Origin: a virus
Taxonomy: Duplodnaviria > Caudoviricetes
Reading direction: 5' to 3' (one strand)
Length of the DNA: 64,000 nucleotides
IMG/VR virus record: IMGVR_UViG_3300031965_000021
Location: 3,175-67,174 of that record
This document shows positions 43,079 through 63,576 of this stretch, piece after piece (positions within the stretch are counted from its first letter, which is position 1; every line of letters starts with the position of its first letter). The notes beneath the pieces are model-generated. The model had not been told where the DNA came from. It ran no database searches and saw only the letters and a program-made list of their open reading frames with translations. Position numbers and translations under genes: made by a program.

Positions 43079-44197
43079 TTACCGCTTTTTCCCTTTAGCT
43101 TCCAATGCTTCTTGTTCATCCTTACACGTCTCCCATATCTCACAGTCGTCACAAACTTCATCAGTATCGCAATCAGTACCAAACATTAAACCGTGAGGGC
43201 AACCGTTATCATCCGGGCCTTGCTCGTCTTCTTCCGGCTCAGGCTCAGGTTTTCTTCTTGACCGTTTTGGTTTTTCTTCAGGTTCAGGCTCATCGTCTTT
43301 CTCTTCAGCCTTTGTTCTTCTGGTTCGTTCTCTGCCTTTTGGCTTTTCTTCCGGCTCATCTTCTTCTTTCTTTCTGGATGATCTGGAAGGCCGACGAGTT
43401 TCTTCTTCCTCCGGCTCATCATCTTCAGCACCGATAAAGCCATGAAACTTCTTATACAACTCATCATAGGTAAGGATGCGCAGGCAGGCATCAAAATCTA
43501 CTGCCTCATCAATCAACTCATCCGGTAAATCATCACGCTCTTCAAAGTCGATTCGGGCAATCTCGGGAAACTTATTACCGGCAAAAGAACCTTGATCAAA
43601 ACGGGCGATAATGGAAAGACCATCCTGGACATCCGCATAGAACTTTCCGTCAAAATTCCGTTCACTCTGGACCACTTCTTCATCATCCAGCATAAAACCG
43701 AACATGTGAGGAGACATTTCAAAGATTTGGATACCTTTATCTTCATCGTCGTGATCCAGGATATTAAAGAGCTGCCGTTGCTTTGGCTTTAATTGATCAG
43801 CCAAGTCAGGATCGTTACCGCTTTTAATCAATGCAGCCCTGTACTCGCAGATAGGGCAACGTTTTTCTGTACTCTGAGCGGTAGAGGCCAGACAAATAAA
43901 ACTCTTTCTGTCTTGCCCTTCTCCTACAGTATGCCGCCAGTAAGTACATTCGTGCCACAACTCACCGGGAGTTTGAAAAGGGTGATTGTCGATACTTACT
44001 TCATAAGGAATAATTGAGAAGAAGTTTTCACCCTTAACCCCTTTACCCATCTTCGGTTTGAAAAACTCAATCTTGTCCGGTAGGTCTTTTAGAGTATCTA
44101 ACCCGCCACTTGACCTTTCTTTGCTTTCTGCAGCCTGCCGGGCTTTATCCCGAATAGATGCTCTTTGCTTTCCTGCTACTTTCCCACGTCTTGCCAT
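43079..44197 (-). CDS. single-stranded DNA-binding protein (T4 gp32-like), probable start MARR at 44197
   Basis: H..G...F.C....CPIC zinc motif; long acidic C-terminus; GGAG RBS. Confidence 0.75.
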   Translation of the reverse strand: MARRGKVAGKQRASIRDKARQAAESKERSSGGLDTLKDLPDKIEFFKPKMGKGVKGENFFSIIPYEVSIDNHPFQTPGELWHECTYWRHTVGEGQDRKSFICLASTAQSTEKRCPICEYRAALIKSGNDPDLADQLKPKQRQLFNILDHDDEDKGIQIFEMSPHMFGFMLDDEEVVQSERNFDGKFYADVQDGLSIIARFDQGSFAGNKFPEIARIDFEERDDLPDELIDEAVDFDACLRILTYDELYKKFHGFIGAEDDEPEEEETRRPSRSSRKKEEDEPEEKPKGRERTRRTKAEEKDDEPEPEEKPKRSRRKPEPEPEEDEQGPDDNGCPHGLMFGTDCDTDEVCDDCEIWETCKDEQEALEAKGKKR

Positions 44198-44232
44198 GTT
44201 GTTTTCTCCATGTTGAATTAGAATTTTAATAC

Positions 44233-44397
44233 TGCAAGAGGCAGGATTCGAACCCGCAATTATCATATGCTAATTATAGAGGGTTTTCATTACTCGGCGC
44301 CAGTCAAGCTACCCGTACAACAGCGGCCATCTCTGCCCTCCGGACTCCTGTTCATTACTAACCGATCTATAGCGTCTACCAATTCCGCCACTCTTGC
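44233..44397 (-). ncRNA. tRNA-like RNA A: Leu-type body with 85-nt insert replacing anticodon loop (165 nt)
   Basis: Acceptor GCAAGAG/CTCTTGC+A73; D arm GCG-GAATTGGTAGA-CGC; stem ATAGA/TCTAT; long variable hairpin; T arm GCGGG-TTCGAAT-CCTGC. Confidence 0.75.
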
Positions 44398-47584: not shown

Positions 47585-50500
47585 TTAAAATATAAAAAAT
47601 TTCTTATACTTCCTCAAATCTTCATCAGTAGTCACATAATCAGGATCAAATGCCTTCACGCAATTCAGTATGTTCATGGTCTTTTCATCAATCCCGTTTA
47701 TCTTCTTGTTCTCATCAGGTAAAGTAAAGAAACTCTTGACACGTTTCTTTTTTTCTTTGAACTTGGCAATCTTCTCTGCTGTTACATCTCCAACCCCTTT
47801 AATGGATATAAACGGGGCAAACAGATTCTTCTTGTTGTCGCAATTCCACTTTAAAGGATGGGAGATACCAATTTTAGGCAGGTTGATCTTCAAACCTAAT
47901 CTCCTGGCCTCTCGAATATATTCGACGTTTTTATCTTTGTTACCGAGCGTCAGACAGGCCGTTATAAACTCGGCTGGGTAGTACGTCTTGCTAAACATAT
48001 CATAATACGTGATCATGGAATATGTCACAGAGTGGGATAGGTTGAATGAATACGATCCTGACTCTGACATCATGTTCCAAATCTGAATTGCTTTATCGTC
48101 TGATACAGTTTTATTATTTTTACAGCCTTGAAGAAATTCCTCTTTATATTTATCAAAAGCAGCGTGCCCCATACTCTTGCCCATAACTTTCCTGATTTTA
48201 TTACAAGTGGCCATAGGGATTCCAGCCAACTGGTTAACCACCTTCATTACCTGTTCTTGATAGACAATAACTCCAAATGTCTCTTCAGTTATCTTGTCGA
48301 AGATAGGATGAATCTTTTCAACCTTTTCCTTTCCCCTTTTCCTTTTAGAATATGATTCAGTCATTCCTGATTGCATTGGGCCGGGCCGCCATAAAGCAGT
48401 TACAGCGTAAATCATAGCAAAGTTTTCAACACCAAGCTCCATACAATAACTGGTCATTCCATGGGTGCTTATCTGGAAAGCCCCTGTGGTATGGCCTGCA
48501 GTAATCTCAGCAAATACTTTAGGGTCATCAAAAGTCAGTTTCTTGTAATCAATATCAACATTATGGTTCTGCTTGATAAGTCTTTTAGTCTCATTTAAGA
48601 TGGTCAAGGCAGATAATCCCAGCACATCTAATTTCATCAGGCCACAATACTCCGCATTACGCATATCCCAATTGGCCACAATATTTCCTGACCTAGACAC
48701 TAGATTACAGTTGTATCCTTCTCTCAGATCATTTTTAGAAATACAGATACCCGCTGCGTGCTGGCCGCAATTATGAGCGATTATCTTATTACAAACAAAA
48801 TTATGATTTTTACTTTTCATCTCTATATCGTATGTCATTTCTTTGCCGACATATTCAAAAGAAATTGTTTTTGCCCATCCAATAGTTTTTAATGGATTTA
48901 CTTTGTGTATTTCTTGATCGCTTATTTCCCAATGTATTTTATGATGACAATCGATACAAGTGGCTAATAAATTTGATTCATCATTATTATATACATCCAA
49001 ATCAATATGATGAATCTCTTTTGTCGGAGAAGAGCCACAAACTTCGCAAGTAATATTCTCTGCTCGATATTTATTCACAAGAGAATATCGACCATGTTTA
49101 AATGATCTTTTTGATATTTGTTTTTTAATTTTTTCACTTTTAGACGGATTGTTTTCTTTCATCCTGATCGAATGAACCATAATCCCTGGATGATCTTCTT
49201 TCTTTAATCCTTTATTCCATGCTACTTGCGCCCCTTTTAACCCCTTGTTCCAAGGTATACCATTAGTCGCAACGTATTCACCAATTTTTATATCTCCTGC
49301 TTTTTTCCACCCATCTTTTGTCAAGAGTTTATGATCAGCAGTCAATCTTATTTTTCTTCCTCCATTATTAGTTACAAGATCATAAACCTTTTTTATTCCA
49401 GTCTGCCAAATATCTACGATGTCGTCAAAAAATAGAATGTTTTTTGTTAAATCATACGCTCTGGCTTTACCTCTATATTTTTCTGCATATAAATGTTTTA
49501 TCTTTTTTACCCTAACTCTATCTCCATTAGGTAAAATCAAACGACAATCACCACTAATACAACCCCTGATCTGTCCTTCTATCGACTTAGCAACATCCGT
49601 AACTTCAGGATATTTTTTGCCGAATCGTTTTAACTCCGAACTTACAACGATAGATCTTTCAATTTGGCCGTTTTCCTTATCGTCAAGCATCGATTTAGCT
49701 GCAGTGTTTACTTCCACTAGGGGAACATCGAAAACTCTGCTAACGTCCCTTAAAACGCCTTTTCCTTTCATGGTCAGAAAATTAGATAAGCCGGACACAT
49801 TAAACTCGCCATATTTATCACAGAGATACTTTCTGACCTCACCTCTTTTAATATCCTCAAAATCCATATCGATGTCCGGCAAATCTTCACGCTCTTCAGA
49901 AACAAATCTAAAAAACTCTGTGCCATAAATAAGAGGGTCACAGTCAGTGATAAACAGCAAATATGCAATTAAACTTCCACCTACGCTGCCCCTTCCTGGC
50001 CCGGTCATTATCCCTTCCTTCTCACACCACTTGATCAGATCCCAGACAATTAGAAAATATCTAGTAAACTTCTTAGCGATAATCAACTTCATTTCCATAT
50101 CGATTCTCTCTCTATATGGAATAAGCTCATCAAAAGTTTTATCTTTTAACCGCAACCTCAACCCTCTGTGGATTCTGTTTTCCAGAAAGGTTATTTCGTC
50201 TTGCTCAGAGGGAAAATTTTTAATACTCGGCAAATATACCTCTTGCTTTTCTATTCTAAAATTCTCACACAGTTTGGCCACAGTTACTGTTCTTCTGATA
50301 GCTCTTTTTATTTGGTGGTCCATCAAACAACCCTGCTCCTGAAAAGCCTCAAACATCTGCTGTTCTGATTTTAAAAACAGCCCACCACAGTTAAATTTCC
50401 ATCTATCCTTATCTAGCCACTTCTTTTTGGTTTGAATCGCTAGGAGCACTTCCTGGTGCTTTGTAGCTTCTGAGGTAGGATAGTGGATATCGTTGGTAGC

Positions 50501-51073
50501 TACTATTTGAAGACCAAGTTTTTTAGAAAGAGAAATGGCTAGTTTGTTTATTTCTATTTGCTCAGGTATTTGATGTGGCATTACTTCAAGGAAAACACGA
50601 TCTTTGCCGATAACCTTAATATAATCCCTGAGCATATCCGCGCCATTATCTTTCTTGATAAAAGACATGGAGCAGGCAGAAAGGACGACAAGCCCTTCAA
50701 TGTGACTTAATAAAGTTTGATGGTCTATCCTGGGGCGATAATAAAACCCGTCTATATTGGCGATGGTCAGGAGTTTTAAAAGATTTCTCCAGCCTATTTG
50801 GTTTTCTACAAGCAGGGTAATATGATATCTGGTTTCCCCTTTATTTTTTACATAAAGGTCGTCGACCAAATACATCTCGGCGCCAATAAGCGGCTTGATT
50901 CCGGCATCGAGGCATTGCTTTTGATGTTCAATCGCTCCGTCAATATTGCTGTGATTTGATAAGCATAGCCACTCCTGACCTAGCTCTTTGGCCATAGCGG
51001 CATATTGTTTAGAGGTGCCGACTCCATCAAGAACAGAATATTCATTATGGACATGTAGATGTGCAAAGGTCAT
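47585..51073 (-). CDS. dnaE: DNA polymerase III alpha subunit (family C) containing an intein
   Basis: PHP HLHVH.EYS.LDG, GPGRGSVGGS, LPDIDMDF, K.D.LGL motifs. Confidence 0.95.
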   Translation of the reverse strand: MTFAHLHVHNEYSVLDGVGTSKQYAAMAKELGQEWLCLSNHSNIDGAIEHQKQCLDAGIKPLIGAEMYLVDDLYVKNKGETRYHITLLVENQIGWRNLLKLLTIANIDGFYYRPRIDHQTLLSHIEGLVVLSACSMSFIKKDNGADMLRDYIKVIGKDRVFLEVMPHQIPEQIEINKLAISLSKKLGLQIVATNDIHYPTSEATKHQEVLLAIQTKKKWLDKDRWKFNCGGLFLKSEQQMFEAFQEQGCLMDHQIKRAIRRTVTVAKLCENFRIEKQEVYLPSIKNFPSEQDEITFLENRIHRGLRLRLKDKTFDELIPYRERIDMEMKLIIAKKFTRYFLIVWDLIKWCEKEGIMTGPGRGSVGGSLIAYLLFITDCDPLIYGTEFFRFVSEEREDLPDIDMDFEDIKRGEVRKYLCDKYGEFNVSGLSNFLTMKGKGVLRDVSRVFDVPLVEVNTAAKSMLDDKENGQIERSIVVSSELKRFGKKYPEVTDVAKSIEGQIRGCISGDCRLILPNGDRVRVKKIKHLYAEKYRGKARAYDLTKNILFFDDIVDIWQTGIKKVYDLVTNNGGRKIRLTADHKLLTKDGWKKAGDIKIGEYVATNGIPWNKGLKGAQVAWNKGLKKEDHPGIMVHSIRMKENNPSKSEKIKKQISKRSFKHGRYSLVNKYRAENITCEVCGSSPTKEIHHIDLDVYNNDESNLLATCIDCHHKIHWEISDQEIHKVNPLKTIGWAKTISFEYVGKEMTYDIEMKSKNHNFVCNKIIAHNCGQHAAGICISKNDLREGYNCNLVSRSGNIVANWDMRNAEYCGLMKLDVLGLSALTILNETKRLIKQNHNVDIDYKKLTFDDPKVFAEITAGHTTGAFQISTHGMTSYCMELGVENFAMIYAVTALWRPGPMQSGMTESYSKRKRGKEKVEKIHPIFDKITEETFGVIVYQEQVMKVVNQLAGIPMATCNKIRKVMGKSMGHAAFDKYKEEFLQGCKNNKTVSDDKAIQIWNMMSESGSYSFNLSHSVTYSMITYYDMFSKTYYPAEFITACLTLGNKDKNVEYIREARRLGLKINLPKIGISHPLKWNCDNKKNLFAPFISIKGVGDVTAEKIAKFKEKKKRVKSFFTLPDENKKINGIDEKTMNILNCVKAFDPDYVTTDEDLRKYKKFFIF
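48770..49561 (-). mobile_element. intein (264 aa) with HNH endonuclease domain
   Basis: Begins CISGD after QIRG, ends IIAHN before C-GQHAAG; internal CEVC..HHID....N...NL...C..CH. Confidence 0.9.
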
Positions 51074-51981
51074 ATATTAATTCCTAATTTGTTTTCTGAT
51101 TCCCCAACTTTCTTGATATTCTTTTTGTAATCTTCCCATAAAACTGAATTGAAGATAGCTTTATGATTTACCCATCTGCAAAAATCCAGTTGCTCTTTTG
51201 ATGGCTTAAGTTTTCCATTTTTATCTCTATATGGTTGTGCAAATGGGTCTAAATATAATGATTTTAATAACCTTATTCTTTCAATTGCATCGGAGATATC
51301 TTTTACAAGAACATAACAAAAATACTTTCTTGGGGTGGCGTTATTCCACCTTAAAAGAGATACAGCATTTATTATATGCGGAATTTGAGATACAGTGTCA
51401 CAAGCAAGACGGATAGGATTTAGCCAATTAATCTTGCTTAATAGTTTAGCAATATTTTTATCAATTAATCTTGAATCGAGACCTTGATTAAAATCTATTT
51501 TCAATTTTAGCTTTATTATTTTTTCAATTTGAGAAATTCCAAACTCACTTGCTAAAACATTGTTATCCATTAGAATAACATTTTGATGCCTAGCAAATTC
51601 ATCTATATCAGCGTGCTTTTTAATATACCCCTCTTTCTCCGGGACAACACACCAAGAACATTTGTTCGGACAACCCCTAGTTAAAAATCCATAGCTCTGT
51701 TTACAACCATATAAAGAGTAGTCTGGACAAATATGTTCAATCTCGTCTGACAACCATTCGTTACTATTATATCCAGTCCCGCCTTTTATTGTATTTTTAG
51801 GGAGTTTATTATTCGATTTAGTCCAGGTAAAAACTTTAGATGAGAAAACCTTGTCATATTTTTCCAAAGGTGAAAACCATTGTACAATATCACCTTTGGA
51901 CTTATGAAATGCCGAAATCTTCATTAATGCTAGGTTAGGATATCCACTTTTCATTTCTGAATCAAACAAACCGATTTTCAT
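51070..51981 (-). CDS. radical SAM protein with B12-binding-like N-terminus
   Basis: TRGCPNKCSWC (CxxxCxxC); PNLALMKISA N-terminal motif. Confidence 0.8.
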   Translation of the reverse strand: MKIGLFDSEMKSGYPNLALMKISAFHKSKGDIVQWFSPLEKYDKVFSSKVFTWTKSNNKLPKNTIKGGTGYNSNEWLSDEIEHICPDYSLYGCKQSYGFLTRGCPNKCSWCVVPEKEGYIKKHADIDEFARHQNVILMDNNVLASEFGISQIEKIIKLKLKIDFNQGLDSRLIDKNIAKLLSKINWLNPIRLACDTVSQIPHIINAVSLLRWNNATPRKYFCYVLVKDISDAIERIRLLKSLYLDPFAQPYRDKNGKLKPSKEQLDFCRWVNHKAIFNSVLWEDYKKNIKKVGESENKLGINI

Positions 51982-52364
51982 TTCACCCCATGTTTTTCAA
52001 TCCAATTACTCTTAACTAAATATTCAGACAAAGCATTTTTCCCAACCCACAAAGCAGGATTTACCACATCCTCTTGTTTCATATCGAGAAGATTAAAATC
52101 AATGTCTGTCTGAACATTAACAATGGTCTTATTAATTATATTCAGCAACTCCCGGTTGGTGTTACTCTTTTTCCATACAACCGCCCTTTTGTTCTGCCAG
52201 CACATCGCTAAAAACGGTACTTTGTGGATTCTGGTAAAAGTCAGAAGTAACGGCTTAAACCTCAACACTTCCTCAAAGTATACCGTCACTTCTTCTTTTG
52301 TTTCCAGGATCAGAATAAGATCAGTATTCATTATGATGGTTCCATATCCCATCAAATCCGGCAT
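51978..52364 (-). CDS. hypothetical protein
   Basis: ATGA-coupled ORF; start uncertain. Confidence 0.6.
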   Translation of the reverse strand: MPDLMGYGTIIMNTDLILILETKEEVTVYFEEVLRFKPLLLTFTRIHKVPFLAMCWQNKRAVVWKKSNTNRELLNIINKTIVNVQTDIDFNLLDMKQEDVVNPALWVGKNALSEYLVKSNWIEKHGVK

Positions 52365-52854
52365 CTGTACTATCTAACTCTATGCCAGTAGAACCAAACC
52401 CATTGGCTCCACGCTCTGTCTCATCCAGAGAATTAACCAATTCGAATACAGGGGATTCGTGCTTTAAAATAATAATTTGAGCTATCCTGTCACCAGGCTT
52501 AAACTGAACAGGAAAATCACCAAAGTTGTGAAGATGAATTTTTATTTCACCACGATAGCCAGAATCGATAATGCCTGCGCCTACCTCAATCCCGTGTTTA
52601 AAAGATAAGCCAGAACGAGAAACTACTTTGCCGACATATCCTTTAGGGATGGCCATCGATAACCCAGTGCTGAATTGAGCTGATGTATGGCCGTAAATAA
52701 CTTTTTCTTCGTTGGTGGATATATCGTAACCTGCATCACCTTCTTTAGCAGGAACAAGTTGATACGGGCCTTTATATTTTATTTTCATTGGTTTAATAAC
52801 TGTCTTATCTTCATCAGACTCTATGTGTTTTAAATATCCTAATATGCTAGTCAT
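52321..52854 (-). CDS. dut: trimeric dUTPase
   Basis: AGYD, SRSG, G.IDSGYRGEI, RIAQ, RG..GFGSTG motifs. Confidence 0.95.
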   Translation of the reverse strand: MTSILGYLKHIESDEDKTVIKPMKIKYKGPYQLVPAKEGDAGYDISTNEEKVIYGHTSAQFSTGLSMAIPKGYVGKVVSRSGLSFKHGIEVGAGIIDSGYRGEIKIHLHNFGDFPVQFKPGDRIAQIIILKHESPVFELVNSLDETERGANGFGSTGIELDSTDAGFDGIWNHHNEY

Positions 52855-52879: not shown

Positions 52880-53899
52880 TTATTCTACAACCTCCAAAGC
52901 CACCACATGGCGGAAAGAATCAGACTCAAACAAAATCCGGTTGTCACTCACCACCCCTTTATCAACAGTAGATAGAATCTGGATAAGGTACTGAGGATTA
53001 ATATTGAATTGGATAGCCGACCCGGAATGTTTAACCCGCATACTTTCTTCCAACCAGCCGCTATCCCCTTCCGCCCTCACTTTCAAAACTCCTTTGTCAC
53101 TGATAGAGATTTCCACCAGCTTCTCCTGATCAAAATCGGCCTCAATAAATATTCCTGCCCGATCCATCATATCTTTTATCTCAGCAGGAAAGACTAATTC
53201 CTGGCCATCAACTACAAACAGCTCGTCCAATTCGGGGAATTTGCCCGCCATGGTTCGACAAGAGAATATAGAGGTACCATCAAGATCAAAGTGGAGCCAG
53301 CCACCATTAAAGGCATAAGCAATAATCTTCCCATAACTGATAAGGGGCTTGGCTGCTTCTGCGGGAATAAGGATTGGTGGGTCGAAATAATCTTTATCAA
53401 GATCACACTGGGTGGCCCTTTCCGAATCAGTACTTTCCACGATAGCTTGGTCACAGTTGATAACAGTCAATATTTCCCGGCTCATATCCTTAGAAGTAGA
53501 GAAGACCACCGAGCGGAGAATCTTATCAAACTTTTCAGGCAGTTCAACAAATAGTTTGGGTATTTTGATTTCCTCTATCGGCATGTGAATTTCCGCTTCC
53601 AGGCGAATCCCGGCTTTGATCTTGCCGTTTTTGATTAATAACTCATTGTCGGTAAATTCCACGTCACACTCATCCCCTTTTAACTTGCCGATCAGGGCTT
53701 GTAGTTCTTTGGCACTTACTGCCCCTTTAACTTTCTTTAGCGGGAATGGAGTGCGAACGGAGATATCGTCGTTGTAGGTGAAAGCCATACCATCCTGAAA
53801 GGCAAACATATTGGATTGGTCGGTGGTTTCTTTTCCTCCGGATAAACCAGGCTTTAGAATACTGAGTACCTTCTTCAAATCTTCAATTTTCACTTTCAT
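52880..53899 (-). CDS. dnaN: DNA polymerase sliding clamp (beta/DnaN-like)
   Basis: 339 aa; STDSERA, G.FPE, FNINPQYL..IL motifs; DnaE and DnaX nearby. Confidence 0.75.
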   Translation of the reverse strand: MKVKIEDLKKVLSILKPGLSGGKETTDQSNMFAFQDGMAFTYNDDISVRTPFPLKKVKGAVSAKELQALIGKLKGDECDVEFTDNELLIKNGKIKAGIRLEAEIHMPIEEIKIPKLFVELPEKFDKILRSVVFSTSKDMSREILTVINCDQAIVESTDSERATQCDLDKDYFDPPILIPAEAAKPLISYGKIIAYAFNGGWLHFDLDGTSIFSCRTMAGKFPELDELFVVDGQELVFPAEIKDMMDRAGIFIEADFDQEKLVEISISDKGVLKVRAEGDSGWLEESMRVKHSGSAIQFNINPQYLIQILSTVDKGVVSDNRILFESDSFRHVVALEVVE

Positions 53900-53910: not shown

Positions 53911-54858
53911 TTAAATAAACTTTTTAAAATATTGGATAGTCATTAAAAGTCCTTCTTCGAGTTGTATTCTTGGCAGCCACCCTAATATGTCACTGGCCAA
54001 AGAAATATCCGGACATCTTTGAGTAGGGTCATCTGAAGGAAGGTTAAGGAAATTGATTACAGAACTGGATCCAGTCAGCTCAACAACTTTCAATGCCAAC
54101 TCCTCGATAGTAAATTCTACAGGATTCCCAAGATTAATTGGTCCAGTAAATGACTTGTCAGTATCATCCATCAGCCTTACAAAACCCTCAATTAAGTCAT
54201 CAACATAACAAAAAGACCTGCTCTGCAAACCATCACCATAAATAGTAATGGGCTTATCCTGAAGAGCCTGGATAATAAAATTAGAAACAACACGGCCGTC
54301 ATTAAAACTCATTCGAGGGCCATATGTATTAAATATCCTGGCCACCTTAATTTCCATATTGTGCTGCCTTTTATAATCAAAGAAAAGAGACTCAGCACAT
54401 CTCTTTCCCTCGTCGTAGCAAGACCTGATTCCGATAGGGTTAACATTCCCCCAATAATATTCTACTTGAGGGTGAATAGACGGATCACCGTAAACCTCAC
54501 TGGTGGAAGCCTGAAATATTTTAGCCTTAGTTCTTTTGGCAAGACCGAGCATATTAATAGCCCCGAGCACTGCTGTTTTAGTAGTCTGGACCGGGTCAAA
54601 TTGATAGTGAATAGGAGAAGCCGGGCACGCAAGGTTATATATCTCGTCGATTTCCACATATAGTGGAAAGGTGATATCGTGCCTTAGAACCTCAAAATAA
54701 GGATTAGGGAGCAGATGTGCAATATTTGCTTTGCCTCCAGTGAAGAAATTATCAACCGCTATAACTTCATGTCCATCATTTAAAAGTCTCTCACAGAGAT
54801 GAGAACCGAGGAAACCTGCCCCACCAGTTACTAAAACTCTTTTTCCATATGATTTCAT
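53911..54858 (-). CDS. UDP-glucuronate decarboxylase (UDP-xylose synthase, extended SDR)
   Basis: [48 protein letters not shown]. Confidence 0.9.
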
Positions 54859-54870
54859 TCTTAATTCCTT

Positions 54871-55419
54871 TTAAAAGTTAAATTCTGGCCAAGCAACTTT
54901 TATTGCCTTGACTAACTCACTCCTATAATTACAAGTCCATTCTGAACATTGATCTTCTACAGTAAATCTAGCTAGAGCAGCTTCGAGTGGATTATCATAT
55001 GAGCCAAGATAGTTTTGTTTTTTATTAATTGTTATCATAGATATAAATTTTTTACCATTTTCGCTCAATGTAACACCAGGAAAACCAGTATTATTTTTTT
55101 TATAAACCATTTGATTTTGCATATTACATGATCGTGTAGCATGTTGTAATTCAGACCACCTATTATCGTCTCTAATCCCAAATTTATGATCCATATCATA
55201 TTCAGGAAAATACCCTTCCGTATATAAACATGCTAAACGGTGAGCTAGGTACTTTTTGCTATTAATGCTAATGGCTATATATCCATTAAAATAACAACCT
55301 GCAATATCTCCAACTTTTACTCCGCCACCATTACTTACCAGCCTAGTAAATATACCAGTATTAGGATCATAATGGAGTTGCCTTTTCAACTCTGCCTGTG
55401 TAAGTCTTTCTTTCATCAT
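54871..55419 (-). CDS. HNH-AP2 homing endonuclease
   Basis: Paralogue of 39891-40463 with the same motifs. Confidence 0.85.
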   Translation of the reverse strand: MMKERLTQAELKRQLHYDPNTGIFTRLVSNGGGVKVGDIAGCYFNGYIAISINSKKYLAHRLACLYTEGYFPEYDMDHKFGIRDDNRWSELQHATRSCNMQNQMVYKKNNTGFPGVTLSENGKKFISMITINKKQNYLGSYDNPLEAALARFTVEDQCSEWTCNYRSELVKAIKVAWPEFNF

Positions 55420-56615
55420 TTCGATTTAACTAGCGTCATACCATATTCATTCTGAGTTTTGGTAGGTACTATGCCCTCTTTTAATATCAATCTGTTTCTT
55501 TTAAATTTTGAGTAATCGACGTTGTGATGCCAATGACCAAACTTCCAAGTTACAGTAACCTCATCAGGGTGTTGTTTTTGAAGAGATTTGGCAAAAGAAA
55601 GCCGGTGGTCACCAGTATTATACACATTATCTGTATTTCCACCCTTCATCGCTCCTTTTTTATCACCAGCACCTTTATATGTCTGTAACTTATTCATTAA
55701 TAAAGCTCTAAACAATACCGTGCAATACCCATCTTTCAATAACCGGAGGCTGAGGTCAGTATCCTCATTGTATCTCCCTCTCCATCTATGAGGCAAATTA
55801 GTATCAAGGAGAATACAAGAATATATTCGGCTATTTAAGAGGAATGGAGTTGATTTAGGCATCCTATCAGGCATAAAAGCCTGATCATGTGGACCAGCCA
55901 TAGCAATATTTTCATATCTGTCAACGAAGTCTTCCATGGCTCTAAAGAATCCACCGCCACGAACTTGAAGCCTTCGATTATTATTACACCGAACAAAATT
56001 CCCAATATTATCATCTAAAGTCCAGTGCCTTTTAAATTCTCTTTCTTTGGCCCAATCCCAGATATAATTTCTTGCAGGAACAGACCCTTTGCCAAGATCG
56101 TGAAAAGGCATCACCACGACGTTTTCTTCCCCGAGGTGATCTATATACTCATCACCTTCTGTTTCCTCTACAAAGAACTTATATGAGATTCCAAGAGCAT
56201 CTAATACCTTCCCTGTAGTTTGAACATCAGCCCTACCTTTACTTGGAATGCAAATAGGGTATCGGCTATCTGTTGGTTCACCGATATACTCAAACTGAGC
56301 GCTTTTTAACCTTTCCTGAGGAGGCCACCAAGTAGAATCAGATTTATGAGTAACCCTAATTCCAAGTTTCTTTGCAAAGTCCTGAACATCTTCCTTAGTC
56401 ATAAAGTTCATGGTTATCTGATATTTCGGGGTGGCGTCTTTCATCTCAAATTCCGGCATACCCCACCAAATATTTTTCCAATCCGGTTCTACATCAAATA
56501 AGTTTACACACTTGATTTCTCTGGTGGGTCTGTTCTTGTTTAAGTCTTCCATCTGATATTTATCCAAGAAGGTATAGTTTATAGAAAAATAGGGATGCCA
56601 GAAAATATCCAACAC
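55416..56615 (-). CDS. GREB1/TET-associated (TAGT)-like GT-A glycosyltransferase with N-terminal accessory domain
   Basis: YPICIPSKGR, ARN.IWD.A, HW.LDDNI, RIYSCIL, RYNEDTDLSL. Confidence 0.7.
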   Translation of the reverse strand: MLDIFWHPYFSINYTFLDKYQMEDLNKNRPTREIKCVNLFDVEPDWKNIWWGMPEFEMKDATPKYQITMNFMTKEDVQDFAKKLGIRVTHKSDSTWWPPQERLKSAQFEYIGEPTDSRYPICIPSKGRADVQTTGKVLDALGISYKFFVEETEGDEYIDHLGEENVVVMPFHDLGKGSVPARNYIWDWAKEREFKRHWTLDDNIGNFVRCNNNRRLQVRGGGFFRAMEDFVDRYENIAMAGPHDQAFMPDRMPKSTPFLLNSRIYSCILLDTNLPHRWRGRYNEDTDLSLRLLKDGYCTVLFRALLMNKLQTYKGAGDKKGAMKGGNTDNVYNTGDHRLSFAKSLQKQHPDEVTVTWKFGHWHHNVDYSKFKRNRLILKEGIVPTKTQNEYGMTLVKSK

Positions 56616-56659: not shown

Positions 56660-57370
56660 CTACTTTACGAACTTGCGGTTGTATGCATAGAGGGCGTTGC
56701 CGATTACTCGGTACGGCTTTTCCGGGAACTTTTCTTTGGCCTGTAGAACAATTGCATCTTCGTGTTGAGTACCGAGGCCGGTTGGGATAACTGATACAAA
56801 AAAGTCATTGATACTAACAGATGATTCTTTCGGTTGCTTGGCAGGTTTATCTGCTTTTCCTTTTTTACCAGAAGGCTTTTCCGGAGCCGGAGCTGAACCG
56901 TCAAGTTTCCCAATCAAATATTCTTTGAGTTTGGCAGTATCCTTATAGAACGGCGGCGGAATCCGAATTGACCAGGCCTTGGCGATGTTCTTCAACTTCT
57001 CAACATCTTTGGTCTTTTTGACTAGGGCAATATCAGCGGCTTTGGCGGCTGCATCTTCATCACCGTTTTCTTCTTCCTGGCCGTTTTCTTCCTGCTCTTC
57101 GCCCGGCTCCTCAAAATCTGCAATACCGGCTATAGTTTCAATATCAAGGGCATTAAGGGTTTCGGCGGTCTCTTTCTGGATGGTATCGGTTGCTTCAAGT
57201 TCTTCGGCTGTCTCTGTTACTTCTGCTTTCAGCTCATCATATTCCAGTTCCAAATCAATACCTTCTTCTGGATCTGCAAACATGAAAGAGTTAAAATCTT
57301 CGGCTACAGCAATAAGCTGCTCCAGTGTCACTTCTGGCTTCGGGTTTTTCTTACTTTTTTTAGGGGCCAT
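56660..57370 (-). CDS. hypothetical protein with highly acidic N-half and Lys/Pro linker
   Basis: AGGAG RBS; first gene after the promoter motif. Confidence 0.75.
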   Translation of the reverse strand: MAPKKSKKNPKPEVTLEQLIAVAEDFNSFMFADPEEGIDLELEYDELKAEVTETAEELEATDTIQKETAETLNALDIETIAGIADFEEPGEEQEENGQEEENGDEDAAAKAADIALVKKTKDVEKLKNIAKAWSIRIPPPFYKDTAKLKEYLIGKLDGSAPAPEKPSGKKGKADKPAKQPKESSVSINDFFVSVIPTGLGTQHEDAIVLQAKEKFPEKPYRVIGNALYAYNRKFVK

Positions 57371-57507: not shown

Positions 57508-59043
57508 TTAAAAGCTGTCTACTATGGCCCTCCCTTGCGCTAAAGACTGTAGTATCGTTACGTAATTCTTCTGATCACTATCATCTTCCCTGACTGCCAA
57601 CATACCTAATCTCATAACTCTTCGCAGCTTTTCTTCCGGTAGTTGGTTCAAAGTTATTGTGCCAGTTACATGGGAAAACTTACGCTTGTCTTCGCTGAAA
57701 TTGCGGTAGCCCAACCACTTCAAATATTGGCTCTCTGCATCAGATTGACTGGCAGAGATAACCAAACAGTGCTTTTCCTGGGATAATCCACGCATACTGG
57801 CCCACGCCTGATTGATAGCATTCCTGTCATGATTCGGCACAATCAAGTCCATATAGTCGGTTATAATCACATCCGGAACAAAACCATCTTCGTCTTGCCA
57901 TAAATTTAGCTGGTGTCTAATCTCCTCCATAGTCAGAGTATTATTGGCATACGAGGAAAGTCTCATTTTAGACTTCTTCCCCCACCTTCTATTCAACTTC
58001 TCTCCCGCCTTAACAGCATCGGTCCATACAAGCGGTGTAACCGGCTTCCTAAGAACAAACCAGGATGACCCTTTAAAAGTATACCCCTCCTCTTTATTTT
58101 TTAAGCAGTGAGTGCAAACAACGTGGTCTTTGGCTTCCTCATAAGTTAATAACTCACCCTTTTCTTTATCCTTAACTATTCCCCAAATACCGGCTCTATG
58201 AGAACAGTCACAAGAATCATCTTGATTATGCCAGCAATCTAAAATGGGAACTTTTAATTCACCACAATATCGAGGTTTATGACTTCTTCCTGTAAACCTG
58301 ATCCCGTATCTTAATTGAAGTTGAGGAGTGGTCATATCCCCGGCAGAAAAGAAAGCCACATTTAAACCCGCTTTTCTGGCCCACATGGATAGTTCAATTA
58401 GCAAAAATGTTTTCCCTCGTTTTTCAGGGCCTAATAAAGTGACAAATCCATCCCTTACAAAAAGATCGTTGAGGAATTTGCCTACAGCCCCAGGGAGTCT
58501 AAAGAGCGGCTCACCTGCCGACTCAAAGGCTTTTTGCATCCCATCTCTATCAGTAAAAGGATCAATACCATTTGACTGAGGAAGGGATATTCGTTTGTAC
58601 TCAAGAATTTCTTTTTGGGCAGCTGCCACATCACCCCTGCTTAATCCTTGTTTTATCCCGGCTACTTTATTGGCCAGATTTCTACTCTCGAAATGCTTCT
58701 CTGCTTGATCAAGAGTATAAGCGCTATTGAATTGCTCTGCCCTCTCATATTCGGTATTGAGGCTTAGAAGCAGGTCGGAAATAAGTTTTTCCTGGTCATC
58801 ATCTAAATTGCCGTTTCTGACCTGCTTTTTGTAGATATCCTCAATGTGAATACCTGGAGCAGACTCAAATTGTTTGTAGTATTCCTGGCACCACCCGATT
58901 ACAGTTAAGATGAATGGGGTTTCGATCAAGTCTGTTTTTAGGATAGGTTGAACATCCCTAATAAACTTATCGTTAACGATCATCCCCAGGAGTATTTGCC
59001 TTTCCGGATTTTCAGATACTTTTCTTCTCCTGTATGTTGTCAT
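57508..59043 (-). CDS. DnaB-like replicative helicase
   Basis: Walker A GPEKRGKT, IITDYMD, SASQ motifs. Confidence 0.85.
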   Translation of the reverse strand: MTTYRRRKVSENPERQILLGMIVNDKFIRDVQPILKTDLIETPFILTVIGWCQEYYKQFESAPGIHIEDIYKKQVRNGNLDDDQEKLISDLLLSLNTEYERAEQFNSAYTLDQAEKHFESRNLANKVAGIKQGLSRGDVAAAQKEILEYKRISLPQSNGIDPFTDRDGMQKAFESAGEPLFRLPGAVGKFLNDLFVRDGFVTLLGPEKRGKTFLLIELSMWARKAGLNVAFFSAGDMTTPQLQLRYGIRFTGRSHKPRYCGELKVPILDCWHNQDDSCDCSHRAGIWGIVKDKEKGELLTYEEAKDHVVCTHCLKNKEEGYTFKGSSWFVLRKPVTPLVWTDAVKAGEKLNRRWGKKSKMRLSSYANNTLTMEEIRHQLNLWQDEDGFVPDVIITDYMDLIVPNHDRNAINQAWASMRGLSQEKHCLVISASQSDAESQYLKWLGYRNFSEDKRKFSHVTGTITLNQLPEEKLRRVMRLGMLAVREDDSDQKNYVTILQSLAQGRAIVDSF

Positions 59044-59735
59044 GGTCTATAATTTCGATCAAACTTCTTTTCACATTCTCTGCAACGAAAGATATCATCG
59101 GCAGCCAAATAGGTTTGTACTGCTCCGGGGCAGGTACAATATTCTTTCTCAGCAACAATTAATTTACATTCATCAGAAGAGGAGGATTCATCATCATCAT
59201 CATCATCCTCCTCAATAACTCCTTTACAATATTGGCAACGATAAATCCGTTGTTTATAGTCATAATATATGCCTTTTGATTCAGAACACCCACAATAGCC
59301 TGATGAAACAACTACTGATGCTATTTTTCTATCGTTAGGTATTTCAATATCATCGGTATTTACTGGATGCTTCAGAAGGATATCCCTATCCAAAATCACT
59401 TCTTTTAAATTTTTATTTCCTTTTGCAATTACTTGGCAGACAGGACAATCACAAAGAAGATTGTCAAAATGGCTTGGTTGTTTCTTCTGTTCTTCAACCG
59501 TTTCTTTATAATCCTTCTCAAAAATAGCCTGCCGCAAATATACAACCAAATCAAGCGCTTCCTGATAAGCATCAATCAAGACATTCCGACCATTAAAAGG
59601 TTGGAGTCTTGTTCCATATTTTTCTTTCCCTTTCTTGTCTCTTTCAATTATATCCGCATACACAAGATCCCAGACAGCAGGGAATTTATTTTTAATCGGT
59701 GCTGGTTCATGTTCATTTAATTTCTTAGAAATCAT
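59040..59735 (-). CDS. possible all-alpha NTP pyrophosphohydrolase-like domain plus Cys-rich C-terminus
   Basis: ER..KG..KYG..L....G...L.DAYQE.LD..VYL; three CxC/CxxC clusters. Confidence 0.4.
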   Translation of the reverse strand: MISKKLNEHEPAPIKNKFPAVWDLVYADIIERDKKGKEKYGTRLQPFNGRNVLIDAYQEALDLVVYLRQAIFEKDYKETVEEQKKQPSHFDNLLCDCPVCQVIAKGNKNLKEVILDRDILLKHPVNTDDIEIPNDRKIASVVVSSGYCGCSESKGIYYDYKQRIYRCQYCKGVIEEDDDDDDESSSSDECKLIVAEKEYCTCPGAVQTYLAADDIFRCRECEKKFDRNYRP

Positions 59736-60085: not shown

Positions 60086-60355
60086 TTAAATAATTTTTTC
60101 CAAATTATCAGTGAGATTACCGAGTATCTGAAATACTTTTCTCTGGTCGATGTTTGAATCCATATTATATCCAAAATGCTTATCTATTTTGTTGATTGCC
60201 TTTCTGTAACAATCAAGTTTCCTATTTGATGATTCTAATGCATTTGCTAATTGTTCGTAAGTTGGGCACCTACCATATTTATTACAACTTCCTCCATCTT
60301 CATTCCCTGGTGTTGAATACCTAACTGGCCTACCACAACCACATTTACCTTTCAT
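60086..60355 (-). CDS. hypothetical protein, 89 aa
   Basis: GGAGG RBS; Cys-rich N-terminus. Confidence 0.65.
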   Translation of the reverse strand: MKGKCGCGRPVRYSTPGNEDGGSCNKYGRCPTYEQLANALESSNRKLDCYRKAINKIDKHFGYNMDSNIDQRKVFQILGNLTDNLEKII

Positions 60356-60993
60356 TTACCCCTCCTATCTTTGTGTGTTCGTCTGTCTGCTCCGCTTAAT
60401 TTGATGATTTTACACATTCCTCTTATCCTGCTGGTAATCCTATCATCCCCGAGTTTGTCTGCCAATTCATCCAGATCAAAGTTTGAGGTAATAATTGTTG
60501 TCCTGATATTCTCGTATCGCTGATTAATGATTAGGTACATAGTCTGAAGCGCCCATTCTGACGTTTTCTCGACTCCGAGATCGTCAAAACAGAGCCAGGG
60601 TATAGAAGAGTACTTCTCGACTAAAAAACGCTCGTCCTGGGCCTGCTCCGGGCTATTATACGACTGTCTAATGTTGAAAAGCAGCAAGGAAACGTTTATC
60701 CAGGCAAATTGATTGAAGTTGGTTGGTGTGGCATTCATCATCTCAGCATACATAATCTTGGCAGCAAGATGGCTTTTACCAGTTCCTTGCTCCCCATGAA
60801 TGAAGGTACTGCTTTTGAACGCACATTCCGGGTCATATTCCTTGGAGATATTTTCGATGATTACCCGTGGCACTTCGGCAGGTAAAACTTTGTCAGGGGC
60901 AAGAGCCGCCAATGCTCTTTTTTTTCGACATTGTAGACAGAGCGGAAAAACATCTCCTTTCAGTTTGATATCGCAATCTTTGCATCTGGTCAT
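60352..60993 (-). CDS. DnaC/IstB-like helicase loader ATPase
   Basis: GEQGTGKSHLA, LCFDDLG.EK, TIITSN, RI.SRI. Confidence 0.9.
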   Translation of the reverse strand: MTRCKDCDIKLKGDVFPLCLQCRKKRALAALAPDKVLPAEVPRVIIENISKEYDPECAFKSSTFIHGEQGTGKSHLAAKIMYAEMMNATPTNFNQFAWINVSLLLFNIRQSYNSPEQAQDERFLVEKYSSIPWLCFDDLGVEKTSEWALQTMYLIINQRYENIRTTIITSNFDLDELADKLGDDRITSRIRGMCKIIKLSGADRRTHKDRRGK

Positions 60994-61004
60994 AGCATTT
61001 CTCC

Positions 61005-62030
61005 TTATAAAGAAAACGGAAGACCCGTTTTTGAGTATATCAGGTTCCCATCTTTGTCGGTTTCCACTTCTTCGGTTTCTGTTCCAGCGTATTTCTTGGG
61101 TTTTACTTTGGTGCCGTTGCCTGGGCTTGTTCTGGATCTTGTTTTTGGTTCTTGCCTGGTCATTGCTGATTCAAGTTTATTGAATTTAGTGCGGAAGGAT
61201 TCAGCAGAGAAACATTCCGGGACAAACTCTTCACCTATATGATCGGCGTACCAGTATAACACTTCCCAAATGCGCGGAATCGGAACTTGGTCAATCTCAT
61301 TTAGTTTACGGAAATGGGTGGGCCATTGATGGGTGCGGGTGCCCAGGGTTATTTTATTTACAGACGAAACAGTCTCTTTCAGGTTTTCAGAGAAGCGGCT
61401 ATATATTCTTTTTACAGAACCAGCTACTTTTTTAGTTTCAGAGGTTTGGTTACCCCCTGAATCAAAAGAATTAGTATTTTTTTCTTTCAGAGAGATATCT
61501 TTTAAGTCCTTTACTGTCTTTTTACTATTTACTGTCCTTTTATATTGGACTATAGATTTTTGGCTTACTCCGGACTGTATATTTTTTATATACTCGGGAG
61601 AGGCCACTTTTCTAAATATACCTCCCTCTGGATTATAGAATTGATCATTGAAATGATTCTCATCTGATAGTGGTGTTGGATAGTCTTTTTCCTTTATGAT
61701 TATATCGTCAATACTGTTAAGTATATACTTGTATGGCTGATGAGAAAGGCGTGCTTGCCCTTTTGGGGCTATAACCTGAATGAAGTTGTATTTCTTGAGG
61801 ATACGTAGGTGGGTCTTGAATGTCTGAAGAGATATCCCAATATATTCCGCCCAATCGTCTTGTTTCATATTGGTGAATACTTGTTCTTCTCTTCCTGCAC
61901 AATACCGTTTGAATGTGCTAAGGATAGTAAATGCTGTTGGTCCTATTATTCTGATATAACGGTCAATGATTGCATTTTTTGTTTCAAAGTAGCCTTCTCT
62001 GGCATCTTTGTCTTGGAGGATCATTGTCAT
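61005..62030 (-). CDS. replication initiator-like protein with N-terminal winged HTH (probable start 62030)
   Basis: ATGA overlap with the upstream stop; HTH-like N-terminus; upstream of the DnaC-like gene. Confidence 0.65.
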   Translation of the reverse strand: MTMILQDKDAREGYFETKNAIIDRYIRIIGPTAFTILSTFKRYCAGREEQVFTNMKQDDWAEYIGISLQTFKTHLRILKKYNFIQVIAPKGQARLSHQPYKYILNSIDDIIIKEKDYPTPLSDENHFNDQFYNPEGGIFRKVASPEYIKNIQSGVSQKSIVQYKRTVNSKKTVKDLKDISLKEKNTNSFDSGGNQTSETKKVAGSVKRIYSRFSENLKETVSSVNKITLGTRTHQWPTHFRKLNEIDQVPIPRIWEVLYWYADHIGEEFVPECFSAESFRTKFNKLESAMTRQEPKTRSRTSPGNGTKVKPKKYAGTETEEVETDKDGNLIYSKTGLPFSL

Positions 62031-62386
62031 CTTAAAATCCCCCTTTGTCTTTTTATTAAATAAAATTCTTTTGCTGGGATTCCTTTCATATAAGTTTCTA
62101 GCATCCCAAGTTCTTTCAATTTCTTTTTGCAATCTCGAATCTGGAATTTAGAAAGCCCAATACAGTCAGTAATGTATTGCTGAGTTATTACAAATGATCC
62201 GTCTTCTTCAATTGTCCTTGGATCTTGACCTGGATTACTAACAATATCGTATTTTTCTTCAATTATAAAGGCATAGAATATAGCTAGATTAAAACCATGC
62301 TTTTTGACTAATAATTTATTAATGCATAAAGCATTGGGGTGTGGGCTTTGAAAACTGGTAAAAACGGAAAAATCTTGATCGTTCAT
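62027..62386 (-). CDS. winged-HTH replication protein-like
   Basis: F.ITQ..I....GLS..Q...C.K.L...G.LE....G.PAK.FY pattern. Confidence 0.65.
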   Translation of the reverse strand: MNDQDFSVFTSFQSPHPNALCINKLLVKKHGFNLAIFYAFIIEEKYDIVSNPGQDPRTIEEDGSFVITQQYITDCIGLSKFQIRDCKKKLKELGMLETYMKGIPAKEFYLIKRQRGILR

Positions 62387-62655: not shown

Positions 62656-63576
62656 TTAATAGTTAAGCAATTCTCTTATCAATCCATCAGCGTCTTCCTG
62701 TTTCATCTCTCCCGGATCTCCTTTTAACAACTCCACTATCTCCACATGACGATCCTCATTATAAAGAGCAATTGCCAATAGTCTGGCCTGCTCCTGAGCC
62801 TGCTCCTCTCCATCAAATAAAATAAACACCTTCCTGAATCTCAGCAATAACACCACCTGCTCCTGAGTATACTTAATCCCGAAAGTCGCAACAGAGCCAT
62901 CTCCCAACCGCCACACATCTGTAACCCCTTCAACCACCACTACACTATCACCAACAACATTATCATACCCATATAAACAGTGCTTGTGAGGCCTGACTTC
63001 ATCCTCTTCCCTACAAGCCTTATATTTTAATTCTGATCTGCCGGTTATATCCCGCCCTTGATACGACACTAATTTGCTTTCAAATTCGATCGGAATTATA
63101 ATCCTATGGTTATACCCTCCCGCTGGCCCTGTGGCTTGTAGTGAGTACTTTGCAGCGATTTTTGAAGGAAGAAAGCCTCTTACCCTCAGATATTTTTTAT
63201 GGATAGTCTTCAGTGGGCCTGTTCCTGGTGGCAATTTACAAACTGTTACTCCTGAAGACGGTCCTTTTTTAATCCCTGGAGAATAAAAGGCTATATTGCT
63301 GCCTTCTAAAGAGTATTGCTTAATGATCAAATAGGCTTCTCTTTCATCAACAGATAGGATGGTTGAGATTACTTTGGTGGCTTTCTTTCCTCCACACCGC
63401 CAACAGGAGAAGGCGCCAAAGAACTTTGATTTTAGGTCAACACAATAGCCCAGGTGATTTCCTGCGTGTCCCGAGCAAAATGGGCAGGGGATTCCCACCC
63501 ATCCTTTGGCTATACCGGGACCACTTTCTTGAAAAGTAATCCCGAACTTTTGATAGAGTTTGATTATGTCAATCAT
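62656..63576 (-). CDS. DNA primase (zinc finger plus Toprim)
   Basis: CPFC..H....CWRCG; VVEGVTD; LFDGE. Confidence 0.85.
   Translation of the reverse strand: MIDIIKLYQKFGITFQESGPGIAKGWVGIPCPFCSGHAGNHLGYCVDLKSKFFGAFSCWRCGGKKATKVISTILSVDEREAYLIIKQYSLEGSNIAFYSPGIKKGPSSGVTVCKLPPGTGPLKTIHKKYLRVRGFLPSKIAAKYSLQATGPAGGYNHRIIIPIEFESKLVSYQGRDITGRSELKYKACREEDEVRPHKHCLYGYDNVVGDSVVVVEGVTDVWRLGDGSVATFGIKYTQEQVVLLLRFRKVFILFDGEEQAQEQARLLAIALYNEDRHVEIVELLKGDPGEMKQEDADGLIRELLNY

Follow-up and report, generated by a model that had tools for sequence, protein, structure and literature searches.

A UDP-xylose synthase gene beside a TAGT-family glycosyltransferase gene in a phage replication operon: a predicted xylose-transfer cassette with DNA as a possible target

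The window analysed here is a stretch of 64,000 nucleotides comprising bases 3175–67174 of the 67,174-bp IMG/VR virus record IMGVR_UViG_3300031965_000021 (Duplodnaviria; Caudoviricetes), which has direct terminal repeats and is rated 100% complete. Between positions 53911 and 56615 it encodes a GT-A glycosyltransferase (GT) of the TAGT family, an HNH homing endonuclease and a UDP-glucuronate decarboxylase (UDP-xylose synthase, UXS), which belong to a long minus-strand block of early genes, with the structural genes on the opposite strand. An interpretation made before any database search, referred to here as the sequence-only reading, described a UXS with its family motifs beside a GT-A gene, with an HNH gene between them, in a replication operon next to the clamp gene, and profile searches confirmed these positions and families. 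Whole-genome tests were performed on three complete genomes carrying the UXS–TAGT pair, namely that of the window phage (G000), the record of relative L004 (G001) and a complete 68.8-kb relative (G003). The closest matches to the phage among sequencing runs were soil and sediment metagenome contigs, with no RNA run among the matches listed.

The UXS open reading frame (ORF) encodes an SDR (short-chain dehydrogenase/reductase) of the extended type, which matches the Pfam Epimerase family at 164 bits. Residues 5–313 align with human UDP-glucuronate decarboxylase (4gll/2b69; phmmer E 8.6e-121), with approximately 60% identity to human UXS1 over the full length as estimated by eye from the alignment. 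The sister SDRs considered in the family test were UDP-glucuronate (UDP-GlcA) 4-epimerase, ArnA, UAXS, GalE and RmlB, and the next-best matches were UDP-GlcA 4-epimerase 6zl6 (E 8.8e-39), ArnA (5e-22) and UAXS (1e-21). An NAD+ site of the Rossmann GxxGxxG type is present (GGAGFLGS, residues 12–19), the catalytic motifs ASTSEVYG (117–124) and Y148-x3-K152 (CYDEGKR) are identical to those of 4gll in the alignment, and residues 276–284 form a DDPxxRxPD motif (DDPTQRCPD). By homology, the SDR is thus assigned as an orthologous UDP-glucuronate decarboxylase, as the sequence-only reading had proposed, and would turn host UDP-GlcA into UDP-xylose. The host must supply the UDP-GlcA because the phage is without a UDP-glucose dehydrogenase (UGDH); E. 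coli, for instance, makes this nucleotide sugar. Human UXS1 and the bacterial enzymes have the same catalytic motifs but feed proteoglycan or polysaccharide synthesis, whereas the phage copy appears wired to a DNA-type glycosyltransferase. In two related records the UXS match is split into two pieces covering residues 5–73 and 69–312 (G037, the record of L062, 20734–21711; G006, the record of L025, 2–409); the pieces lie approximately 45 nt apart, and a small insertion or a frameshift may be responsible.

The TAGT ORF matched Pfam PF20691 at 131.7 bits (cut-off 27.5) over residues 119–316 of the long ORF, and at 133.8 bits in a six-frame profile search. The subfamily is very large and metagenomic: at E ≤ 1e-10 it numbers 6637 proteins. 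The 120 relatives listed are all at least 64% identical to the window enzyme and mostly approximately 375–390 aa long. Because the relatives in one alignment (A1) begin at the position of Met22 of the long ORF, the true start is probably the ATG at 56552, giving a protein of 378 aa, with the GTG at 56615 lying too far upstream. The glycosyltransferase core spans approximately residues 99–378 and contains the motifs R107, D180-D181-N182 and E263-D264-T265, in which the third acidic position is occupied by an Asn that is nearly invariant (≥90%) across a 60-sequence alignment (A2). An AF2 model built on this 60-sequence alignment reached a mean predicted local confidence (pLDDT) of 87.6 and a predicted template modelling score (pTM) of 0.88. 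Foldseek comparison of the model with the PDB returned only generic GT-A matches at TM-scores of 0.3–0.4 (ColGalT1, K4CP, SpsA and TarP), and a PDB sequence search gave no match. Neither a transmembrane segment (maximum KD19 of 0.96) nor a signal peptide is present and the core is basic, with an isoelectric point (pI) of 9.1; the enzyme is predicted from its sequence to be soluble. Searches by tblastn at E 1e-5 with the window TAGT do not reach the T-even enzymes, and Aeromonas phages Aeh1 and 65 carry homologues that are 35–40% identical. In two genomes without UXS, two full-length TAGT paralogues stand in tandem (L039, 9965–12274; L028, 9168–11429), which suggests sequential sugar additions or two acceptors.

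The HNH gene fills the gap between the TAGT stop codon, which it overlaps in an ATGA, and the ribosome-binding site of UXS. In relatives that are 98% identical, the UXS ribosome-binding site and start lie within 14 nt of the TAGT stop, and DNA alignment shows the HNH gene to be a clean insertion of approximately 550 bp, which is missing at the TAGT–UXS junction in L003–L008. Paralogues are scattered elsewhere in the genome of the window phage. Four HNH_3 genes or fragments occur in the early region alone (35688–36188, 39891–40463, 42416–42784 and 54871–55419, (−)), and the intein of the DNA polymerase III alpha subunit also contains an HNH domain, the replication module thus being rich in mobile endonucleases.

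UXS lies beside TAGT in all six close viral contigs. One of these, G003, has only the replication module in common with the window phage, and there the order is swapped, UXS preceding TAGT, with the two genes still adjacent. They are also the best-conserved proteins between these two phages, at 67–69% identity, compared with 31–57% for the helicase, clamp, primase and recombinase. A tblastn census of 65 IMG/VR loci with TAGT relatives found an extended nucleotide-sugar SDR to be the commonest neighbour (22 loci, in 21 of which it lies within approximately 800 nt on the same strand). True UXS orthologues (53–96% identity) adjoin two separate TAGT clades, while other SDRs, which are 24–29% identical to UXS and generic epimerase- or decarboxylase-like by PDB search, adjoin several further clades. 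UGDH genes occur in eight of the 65 loci, and L074 and L075 encode UGDH, TAGT and UXS together, the whole route from UDP-glucose. In four more genomes from a TAGT clade of 60–64% identity, UXS lies 10–14 kb from TAGT. Given that adjacency is kept, that the order is swapped in one lineage and that SDR and UGDH neighbours recur in other TAGT clades, the gene arrangement indicates that UXS is functionally coupled to TAGT and not placed beside it by chance. There is experimental precedent, since phage GT-A enzymes beside an ‘epimerase’ needed that partner for DNA glycosylation (Pyle et al., 10.1101/2023.12.21.572611).

The proposal of the sequence-only reading that the phage makes its own pentose donor is likely to be correct, because UXS orthology is combined with conserved linkage to TAGT and with recurrent SDR and UGDH neighbours. 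UDP-xylose is therefore the probable donor of TAGT. Against this, close TAGTs without UXS exist, including several of 57–61% identity in complete or near-complete genomes, and no residue was found that separates the two groups. The two genes would form a mobile sugar-transfer cassette, expressed with the replication genes, in which the soluble TAGT would use UDP-xylose as donor, as their linkage suggests.

The N-terminal residues of TAGT, approximately 100 in number, constitute a separable docking module, consisting of a flexible peptide with LF at residues 18–19 followed by a WWGMPxF module. In distant clades, approximately 60 residues homologous to positions 50–110 of the long ORF either form a stand-alone protein of approximately 93 aa or are found at the C-terminus of a protein of approximately 204 aa with an N-terminal ParB_N domain. 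A TAGT core of approximately 290 aa follows directly. The isolated N-terminal module was modelled poorly (pLDDT 66.7, pTM 0.36) and became confident only together with the core, and so it probably docks on the core. The peptide that precedes the module in fused TAGTs was modelled with low confidence and has the logo R-E-x-x-Q-x-[TS]-L-F-D-[LVI]-E-P-D-W in 108 relatives. The bacterial beta-clamp-binding pentapeptide is QL[SD]LF, which the N-terminal peptide resembles in sequence, and the beta-type clamp encoded directly downstream of UXS is a possible tether for it. The fused form of TAGT is present in each of the 12 loci with a beta-type clamp gene. A regular-expression scan for clamp motifs in the other proteins of the phage gave nothing informative, and an ESM Atlas search with the N-terminal part yielded only sub-threshold leads, namely viral hypothetical proteins of 86–111 aa (score 0.82).

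Wherever it was found, the TAGT gene stands among genes for DNA transactions, which are replication genes in the window and many relatives and portal and terminase genes elsewhere. CTPases of the ParB type act as DNA clamps. DNA is hinted at as the target because of this replication or packaging context, the ParB_N fusion, the clamp-like peptide, the soluble enzyme with its basic core and the DNA-acting relatives. Among the latter, the TAGT relatives of T2 and T6 act on DNA (PMC13216743), as do JGT-like phage glycosyltransferases (Pyle et al.). ParB has been found to activate phage DNA (thymidine) dioxygenases (PMC13229309).

Characterised phage DNA glycosylation starts from 5-hydroxymethylcytosine (5hmC), 5-hydroxymethyluracil (5hmU) or 5-hydroxycytosine (5hoC) made with a thymidylate-synthase homologue, from the TET-like oxygenase 5mYOX acting after a C5-methyltransferase, or from a DNA-borne sugar; to our knowledge, a hydroxylated pyrimidine is the starting point of all known pathways. 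Six-frame profile searches of G000, G001 and G003 found no Thymidylat_synt match (PF00303), and hence no hydroxymethylase or 5hoC synthase of that type, with the positive controls matched. The same genomes gave no match to Tet_JBP (PF12851), in a search without a positive control, to 2OG-FeII_Oxy_2 or _3 (PF13532, PF13640), to C5 DNA methylase (PF00145) or to the T4 alpha- and beta-glucosyltransferases (PF11440, PF09198), the PF09198 search recovering T4 beta-gt as its positive control. No acceptor-making candidate emerged from hmmscan of the early ORFs of at least approximately 95 aa. Likewise, neither a thymidylate-synthase nor a TET match was obtained in 43 further viral records with a TAGT, of which seven are at least 90% complete, or in the cultured Vibrio phage 1.076.O. 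Aeromonas phage Aeh1 has a true thymidylate synthase only, in line with its published lack of gene 42. Two genes of the window were considered individually. The radical-SAM gene was rejected as an obligatory acceptor-maker, being missing from G001 and G003, and a 395-aa ORF at 43079–44266 (−) was set aside as a hidden oxygenase, since by eye it looks like a zinc single-stranded DNA-binding protein (SSB) of the T4 gp32 type. The latter protein has a CPICE motif and a long acidic/basic C-terminal tail, lacks a Pfam or PHROG match and is kept in G001 and G003. The hydroxylase or hydroxymethylase genes that the sequence-only reading suggested looking for in the rest of the genome were not found by these searches of the three complete genomes. 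Of its wider proposal of DNA hypermodification, the coupling of UXS to a TAGT and the likely donor stand, while the route of hydroxymethylation followed by glycosylation lacks the enzymes that it needs.

Restriction-site avoidance was measured by comparing 6-bp palindromes with their maximal-order Markov expectation, with Mann-Whitney tests against non-palindromes, and was calibrated with T4 and T7 only. The mean z was −1.35 for G000 (observed/expected 0.80), −1.21 for G001 (0.81) and −1.24 for G003 (0.81), with p of approximately 1e-12 to 1e-14 for these genomes. T7, whose DNA is unmodified, gave −1.67 (0.59; p 8.2e-15), and the first 50 kb of T4, with its glucosylated hydroxymethylcytosine (glucosyl-hmC), gave −0.28 (0.94; p 0.014). 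The G000 genome has a single GAATTC where 19 are expected, a single GCCGGC where 11 are expected and no GAGCTC where 7.4 are expected; in G003, CCCGGG occurs twice against 26.7 expected and ACCGGT once against 15.9. These depletions suggest that certain type II restriction systems of the host exert selection. The 4-bp palindromes are depleted in T4 too and do not discriminate; the 6-mer result alone was used. Together these data suggest that type II restriction can still act on the phage DNA at sites in which all four bases occur, and the evidence is moderate because there were two calibrators. A blanket protective modification is disfavoured because bulky replacement of a base throughout the genome should relax selection against restriction sites, and a sparse or site-specific DNA mark is compatible with the observed avoidance.

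The surrounding genes are collected in Table 1, and further along the early block lie clamp loader, SSB, RecA-like and SbcCD-like genes. The acidic 236-aa protein that opens the TAGT operon is matched in seven loci, with approximately 89% identity in L003 and L004/G001 and 43–51% in L005–L008, including G003, and its gene adjoins the TAGT–UXS pair in related lineages. The 231-aa protein encoded between the DnaC-like and DnaB-like genes has Cys-rich zinc-ribbon-like repeats followed by an acidic run; it has no Pfam match, and its approximately 75 N-terminal residues match several PHROGs without an assigned function as well as the C-terminus of a dNMP-kinase PHROG. A PDB sequence search with the radical-SAM protein found no solved relative. 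The 128-aa remnant resembling uracil-DNA glycosylase (UDG) corresponds by homology to the UDG-superfamily domain at the N-terminus of UDG+3′-5′-exonuclease proteins of approximately 407 aa, which in relatives (e.g. L007, 13172–14395) sit before a family-A polymerase. Given that the window phage instead has an intein-bearing Pol III alpha, the polymerase module appears to have been swapped and the UDG-like remnant kept.

Table 1. Genes and features around the UXS–TAGT pair, in window coordinates
Feature	Position	Strand	Remarks
Primase	62656–63576	−	Early block; transcribed before the DnaD-like gene
DnaD-like protein	61005–62132	−	Replication operon
DnaC-like protein	60352–60993	−	Replication operon
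Cys-rich 231-aa protein	59040–59735	−	Between DnaC-like and DnaB-like genes
DnaB-like helicase	57508–59043	−	Replication operon
Acidic 236-aa protein	56660–57370	−	First gene of TAGT operon; no Pfam/NCBIfam match; pI 4.7
TAGT-family GT-A glycosyltransferase	55416–56552 (ORF open to GTG 56615)	−	PF20691; phrog_842
TAGT N-terminal docking module, residues 1–98	56259–56552	−	Kept in alignments A1 and A2
Free-standing HNH homing endonuclease	54871–55419	−	HNH_3, 31.4 bits; phrog_99, E 1e-51
UDP-glucuronate decarboxylase (UXS)	53911–54858	−	315 aa; matches human UXS1
Beta-type sliding clamp	52880–53899	−	Directly downstream of UXS; phrog_947, E 3.9e-36; DNA_pol3_beta_2/_3 (Pfam) below cut-off
dUTPase	52321–52854	−	After clamp gene
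UDG-like remnant, 128 aa	51978–52364	−	After dUTPase
Radical-SAM protein	51070–51981	−	CPNKCSWC motif; phrog_9298, E 1e-86
Pol III alpha with intein	47585–51073	−	After radical-SAM gene

The most economical view of these results is that of a mobile xylose-transfer cassette, whose soluble transferase would be brought to replicating or packaged DNA and would mark DNA or protein there. The reading preferred here, with a probability of approximately 0.4, is that the TAGT–UXS cassette marks DNA sparsely and by chemistry other than the known ones. The acceptor would be phage DNA at the replication fork or in its wake, a step with less support than the donor step. TAGT would reach the DNA via its N-terminal docking module, the LF peptide of which may bind the clamp encoded downstream, the ParB_N DNA-clamp domain fused to the same module perhaps serving in other clades. 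Such a modification would not be a wholesale base replacement in the style of T4 but would have to be sparse or site-limited, and its acceptor chemistry would have to do without a hydroxymethyl- or hydroxy-pyrimidine made beforehand. A further proposal, and a rather speculative one, is that phage glycosyltransferases of a widespread family, brought to DNA by sliding clamps (via a beta-clamp peptide or a fused ParB CTPase domain), put sugars directly on nucleic acid without a pre-installed hydroxyl base, for example by N-glycosylation of an exocyclic amine at sparse sites, with xylose as the sugar here.

Several observations weigh against sparse DNA marking. Canonical DNA bases carry no hydroxyl group, and we know of no DNA glycosyltransferase that works without an acceptor hydroxyl. 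The searches brought up no acceptor-making enzyme in the three complete genomes or the 43 other TAGT-bearing records, and 6-bp palindromes are avoided in G000, G001 and G003 as in T7, unlike T4. TAGTs 57–70% identical to the window enzyme occur without UXS, some in complete genomes, and no informative residue emerged when UXS-linked and UXS-less TAGTs were compared. The peptide of the window enzyme reads CVNLF, in which the Gln of the clamp motif is missing. Finally, Aeh1 and 65 are without gene 42, and DNA of their kind is thought to be free of major modification (PMC2993671).

The alternatives differ in what would receive the sugar and in whether the two genes work together. Transfer to protein is unlikely, if less so than the rest; TAGT would then O-glycosylate a cytoplasmic protein with phage-made UDP-xylose, the candidates being a replisome component (the clamp, SSB or the acidic 236-aa neighbour), a host factor or a defence protein. 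The eukaryotic TAGT relative GREB1 has been reported to glycosylate protein, the phage enzyme is soluble, a modified base that could accept the sugar is lacking, the avoidance of restriction sites suggests that the DNA is ordinary, and the acidic gene accompanies the pair in related lineages. Pyle et al. moreover deem GT contigs that lack 5mYOX and ThyS, approximately 65% of the total, to be less likely DNA modifiers. On the other hand, no conserved substrate gene follows TAGT across clades, where the SDR, UGDH and ParB_N modules alone recur; the ParB_N fusion and the replication and packaging contexts point to DNA, on which all characterised phage members of the family act. RNA (primers or tRNA-like RNAs, through a ribose or modified-base hydroxyl) or a nucleotide-type metabolite or signal is an improbable acceptor. 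It would suit a soluble, cytoplasmic enzyme and, on chemical grounds, would offer the hydroxyls that canonical DNA bases lack, yet no gene for RNA or nucleotide metabolism accompanies TAGT across clades and the ParB_N fusion suggests double-stranded DNA. Equally improbable is that UXS and TAGT are not a pair, with UXS an auxiliary metabolic gene remodelling the host UDP-sugar pool, e.g. through depletion of UDP-GlcA or feedback inhibition of UGDH, and TAGT using a host donor such as UDP-glucose. The UXS-less TAGTs and the missing specificity residue would be explained in this way, but the adjacency maintained across divergent phages even with the order swapped, the independent recruitment of UXS, other SDRs and UGDH beside TAGT in several clades, and the precedent of a glycosyltransferase that depends on its adjoining SDR (Pyle et al.) argue otherwise.

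Two further explanations can be given very little credence. Pentosylation of a hydroxymethyl- or hydroxy-pyrimidine throughout the genome, shielding it from restriction and CRISPR as in T4, RB69 and Thanatos, would fit membership of the TAGT family and has pentose-on-cytosine precedents in the arabinosyl-5hoC of RB69 and DLP3 (PMC13326640) and the deoxypentose of Thanatos (PMC12838424). However, the precedent pathways all begin with either a thymidylate-synthase homologue or an oxygenase of the TET type, neither of which was found in the three complete genomes, no dCTPase-type exclusion system accompanies the ordinary dUTPase, and avoidance of 6-mer palindromes is strong. The protective role against restriction and CRISPR nucleases invoked by the sequence-only reading is accordingly not borne out, as these sites are avoided almost as strongly as in T7. 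Sugar transfer to virion proteins or to glycans on the host surface, for seroconversion or to mask receptors, is likewise not favoured here; the sequence-only reading had named virion or host-surface targets as the alternative. Xylose-containing surface glycans exist in some bacteria and TAGT lies beside portal or terminase genes in some relatives, but in the window the pair belongs to an early replication operon on the strand opposite the structural genes, TAGT has neither a signal peptide nor a transmembrane segment, and scans of the phage ORFs found no flippase or lipid-carrier genes.

Among known systems, the subclass II clusters of Pyle et al. (10.1101/2023.12.21.572611; Cell Rep 2024) are comparable in placing a GT-A enzyme of the JGT/TAGT kind directly beside a donor-supplying extended SDR, in contexts with clamp, polymerase, ParB and terminase genes. 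They differ in having a C5-methyltransferase and 5mYOX/TET that make 5hmC, neither of which was found in the genome of the window phage, and in their sugars, which are hexose, N-acetylhexosamine, hexuronic acid and heptose, neither a pentose nor a UXS being reported for them. The JGT-like active site, R...DDD...EDY/F, is close to the R...DDN...EDT of the window TAGT, the third Asp being replaced by Asn. The founding TAGT, the beta-glucosyl-HMC-alpha-glucosyltransferase of T2 and T6, belongs to the same Pfam and PHROG families, has a GT-A fold and is likewise encoded among replication genes. It adds a second glucose to alpha-glucosyl-hmC and requires gene 42 and the alpha-glucosyltransferase, neither found in the window phage, whereas the window TAGT carries an additional docking module at its N-terminus and is provided with a UDP-xylose source of its own. 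More generally, the T-even glucosyl-hmC system relies on gene 42 and a first-sugar alpha- or beta-glucosyltransferase, for which PF00303, PF09198 and PF11440 gave no match here. The arabinosyl-5hoC system of RB69 and DLP3 and the deoxypentosyl-cytosine of Thanatos share a phage-encoded supply of activated pentose; in these, however, the acceptor nucleotide comes from a thymidylate-synthase homologue, the pentose is activated by nucleotidyltransferase-type enzymes and not by UXS, and the transferases lie outside the subfamily of the window TAGT.

Phage cassettes of a GT-A enzyme with a sugar-nucleotide enzyme have been published, and most GT contigs are without 5mYOX or ThyS (Pyle et al.). Neither a UXS-fed TAGT nor a xylosyl DNA modification turned up in the literature searched. 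What is new here is the negative result for acceptor enzymes in three complete genomes, the argument from restriction-site avoidance, the census of SDR and UGDH co-occurrence, the clean HNH insertion and the modular architecture of the docking domain with either a peptide or ParB_N. DNA glycosylation is a major counter-defence of phages and a source of enzymes for epigenetic sequencing. The TAGT subfamily is very abundant and has many times been linked to a sugar-nucleotide supply of its own, but occurs in complete genomes in which none of the known acceptor-making enzymes was found. If the acceptor is DNA, the cassette would represent a type of nucleic-acid modification new to science, involving a pentose (xylose) not yet seen on DNA, and direct transfer, if true, would add a chemically new class to the known DNA modifications, one whose donor is supplied by the phage itself. 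If the acceptor is protein, a ‘DNA-type’ glycosyltransferase family would have a large protein-directed branch. Either outcome would change the annotation of about two thirds of phage contigs containing a glycosyltransferase.

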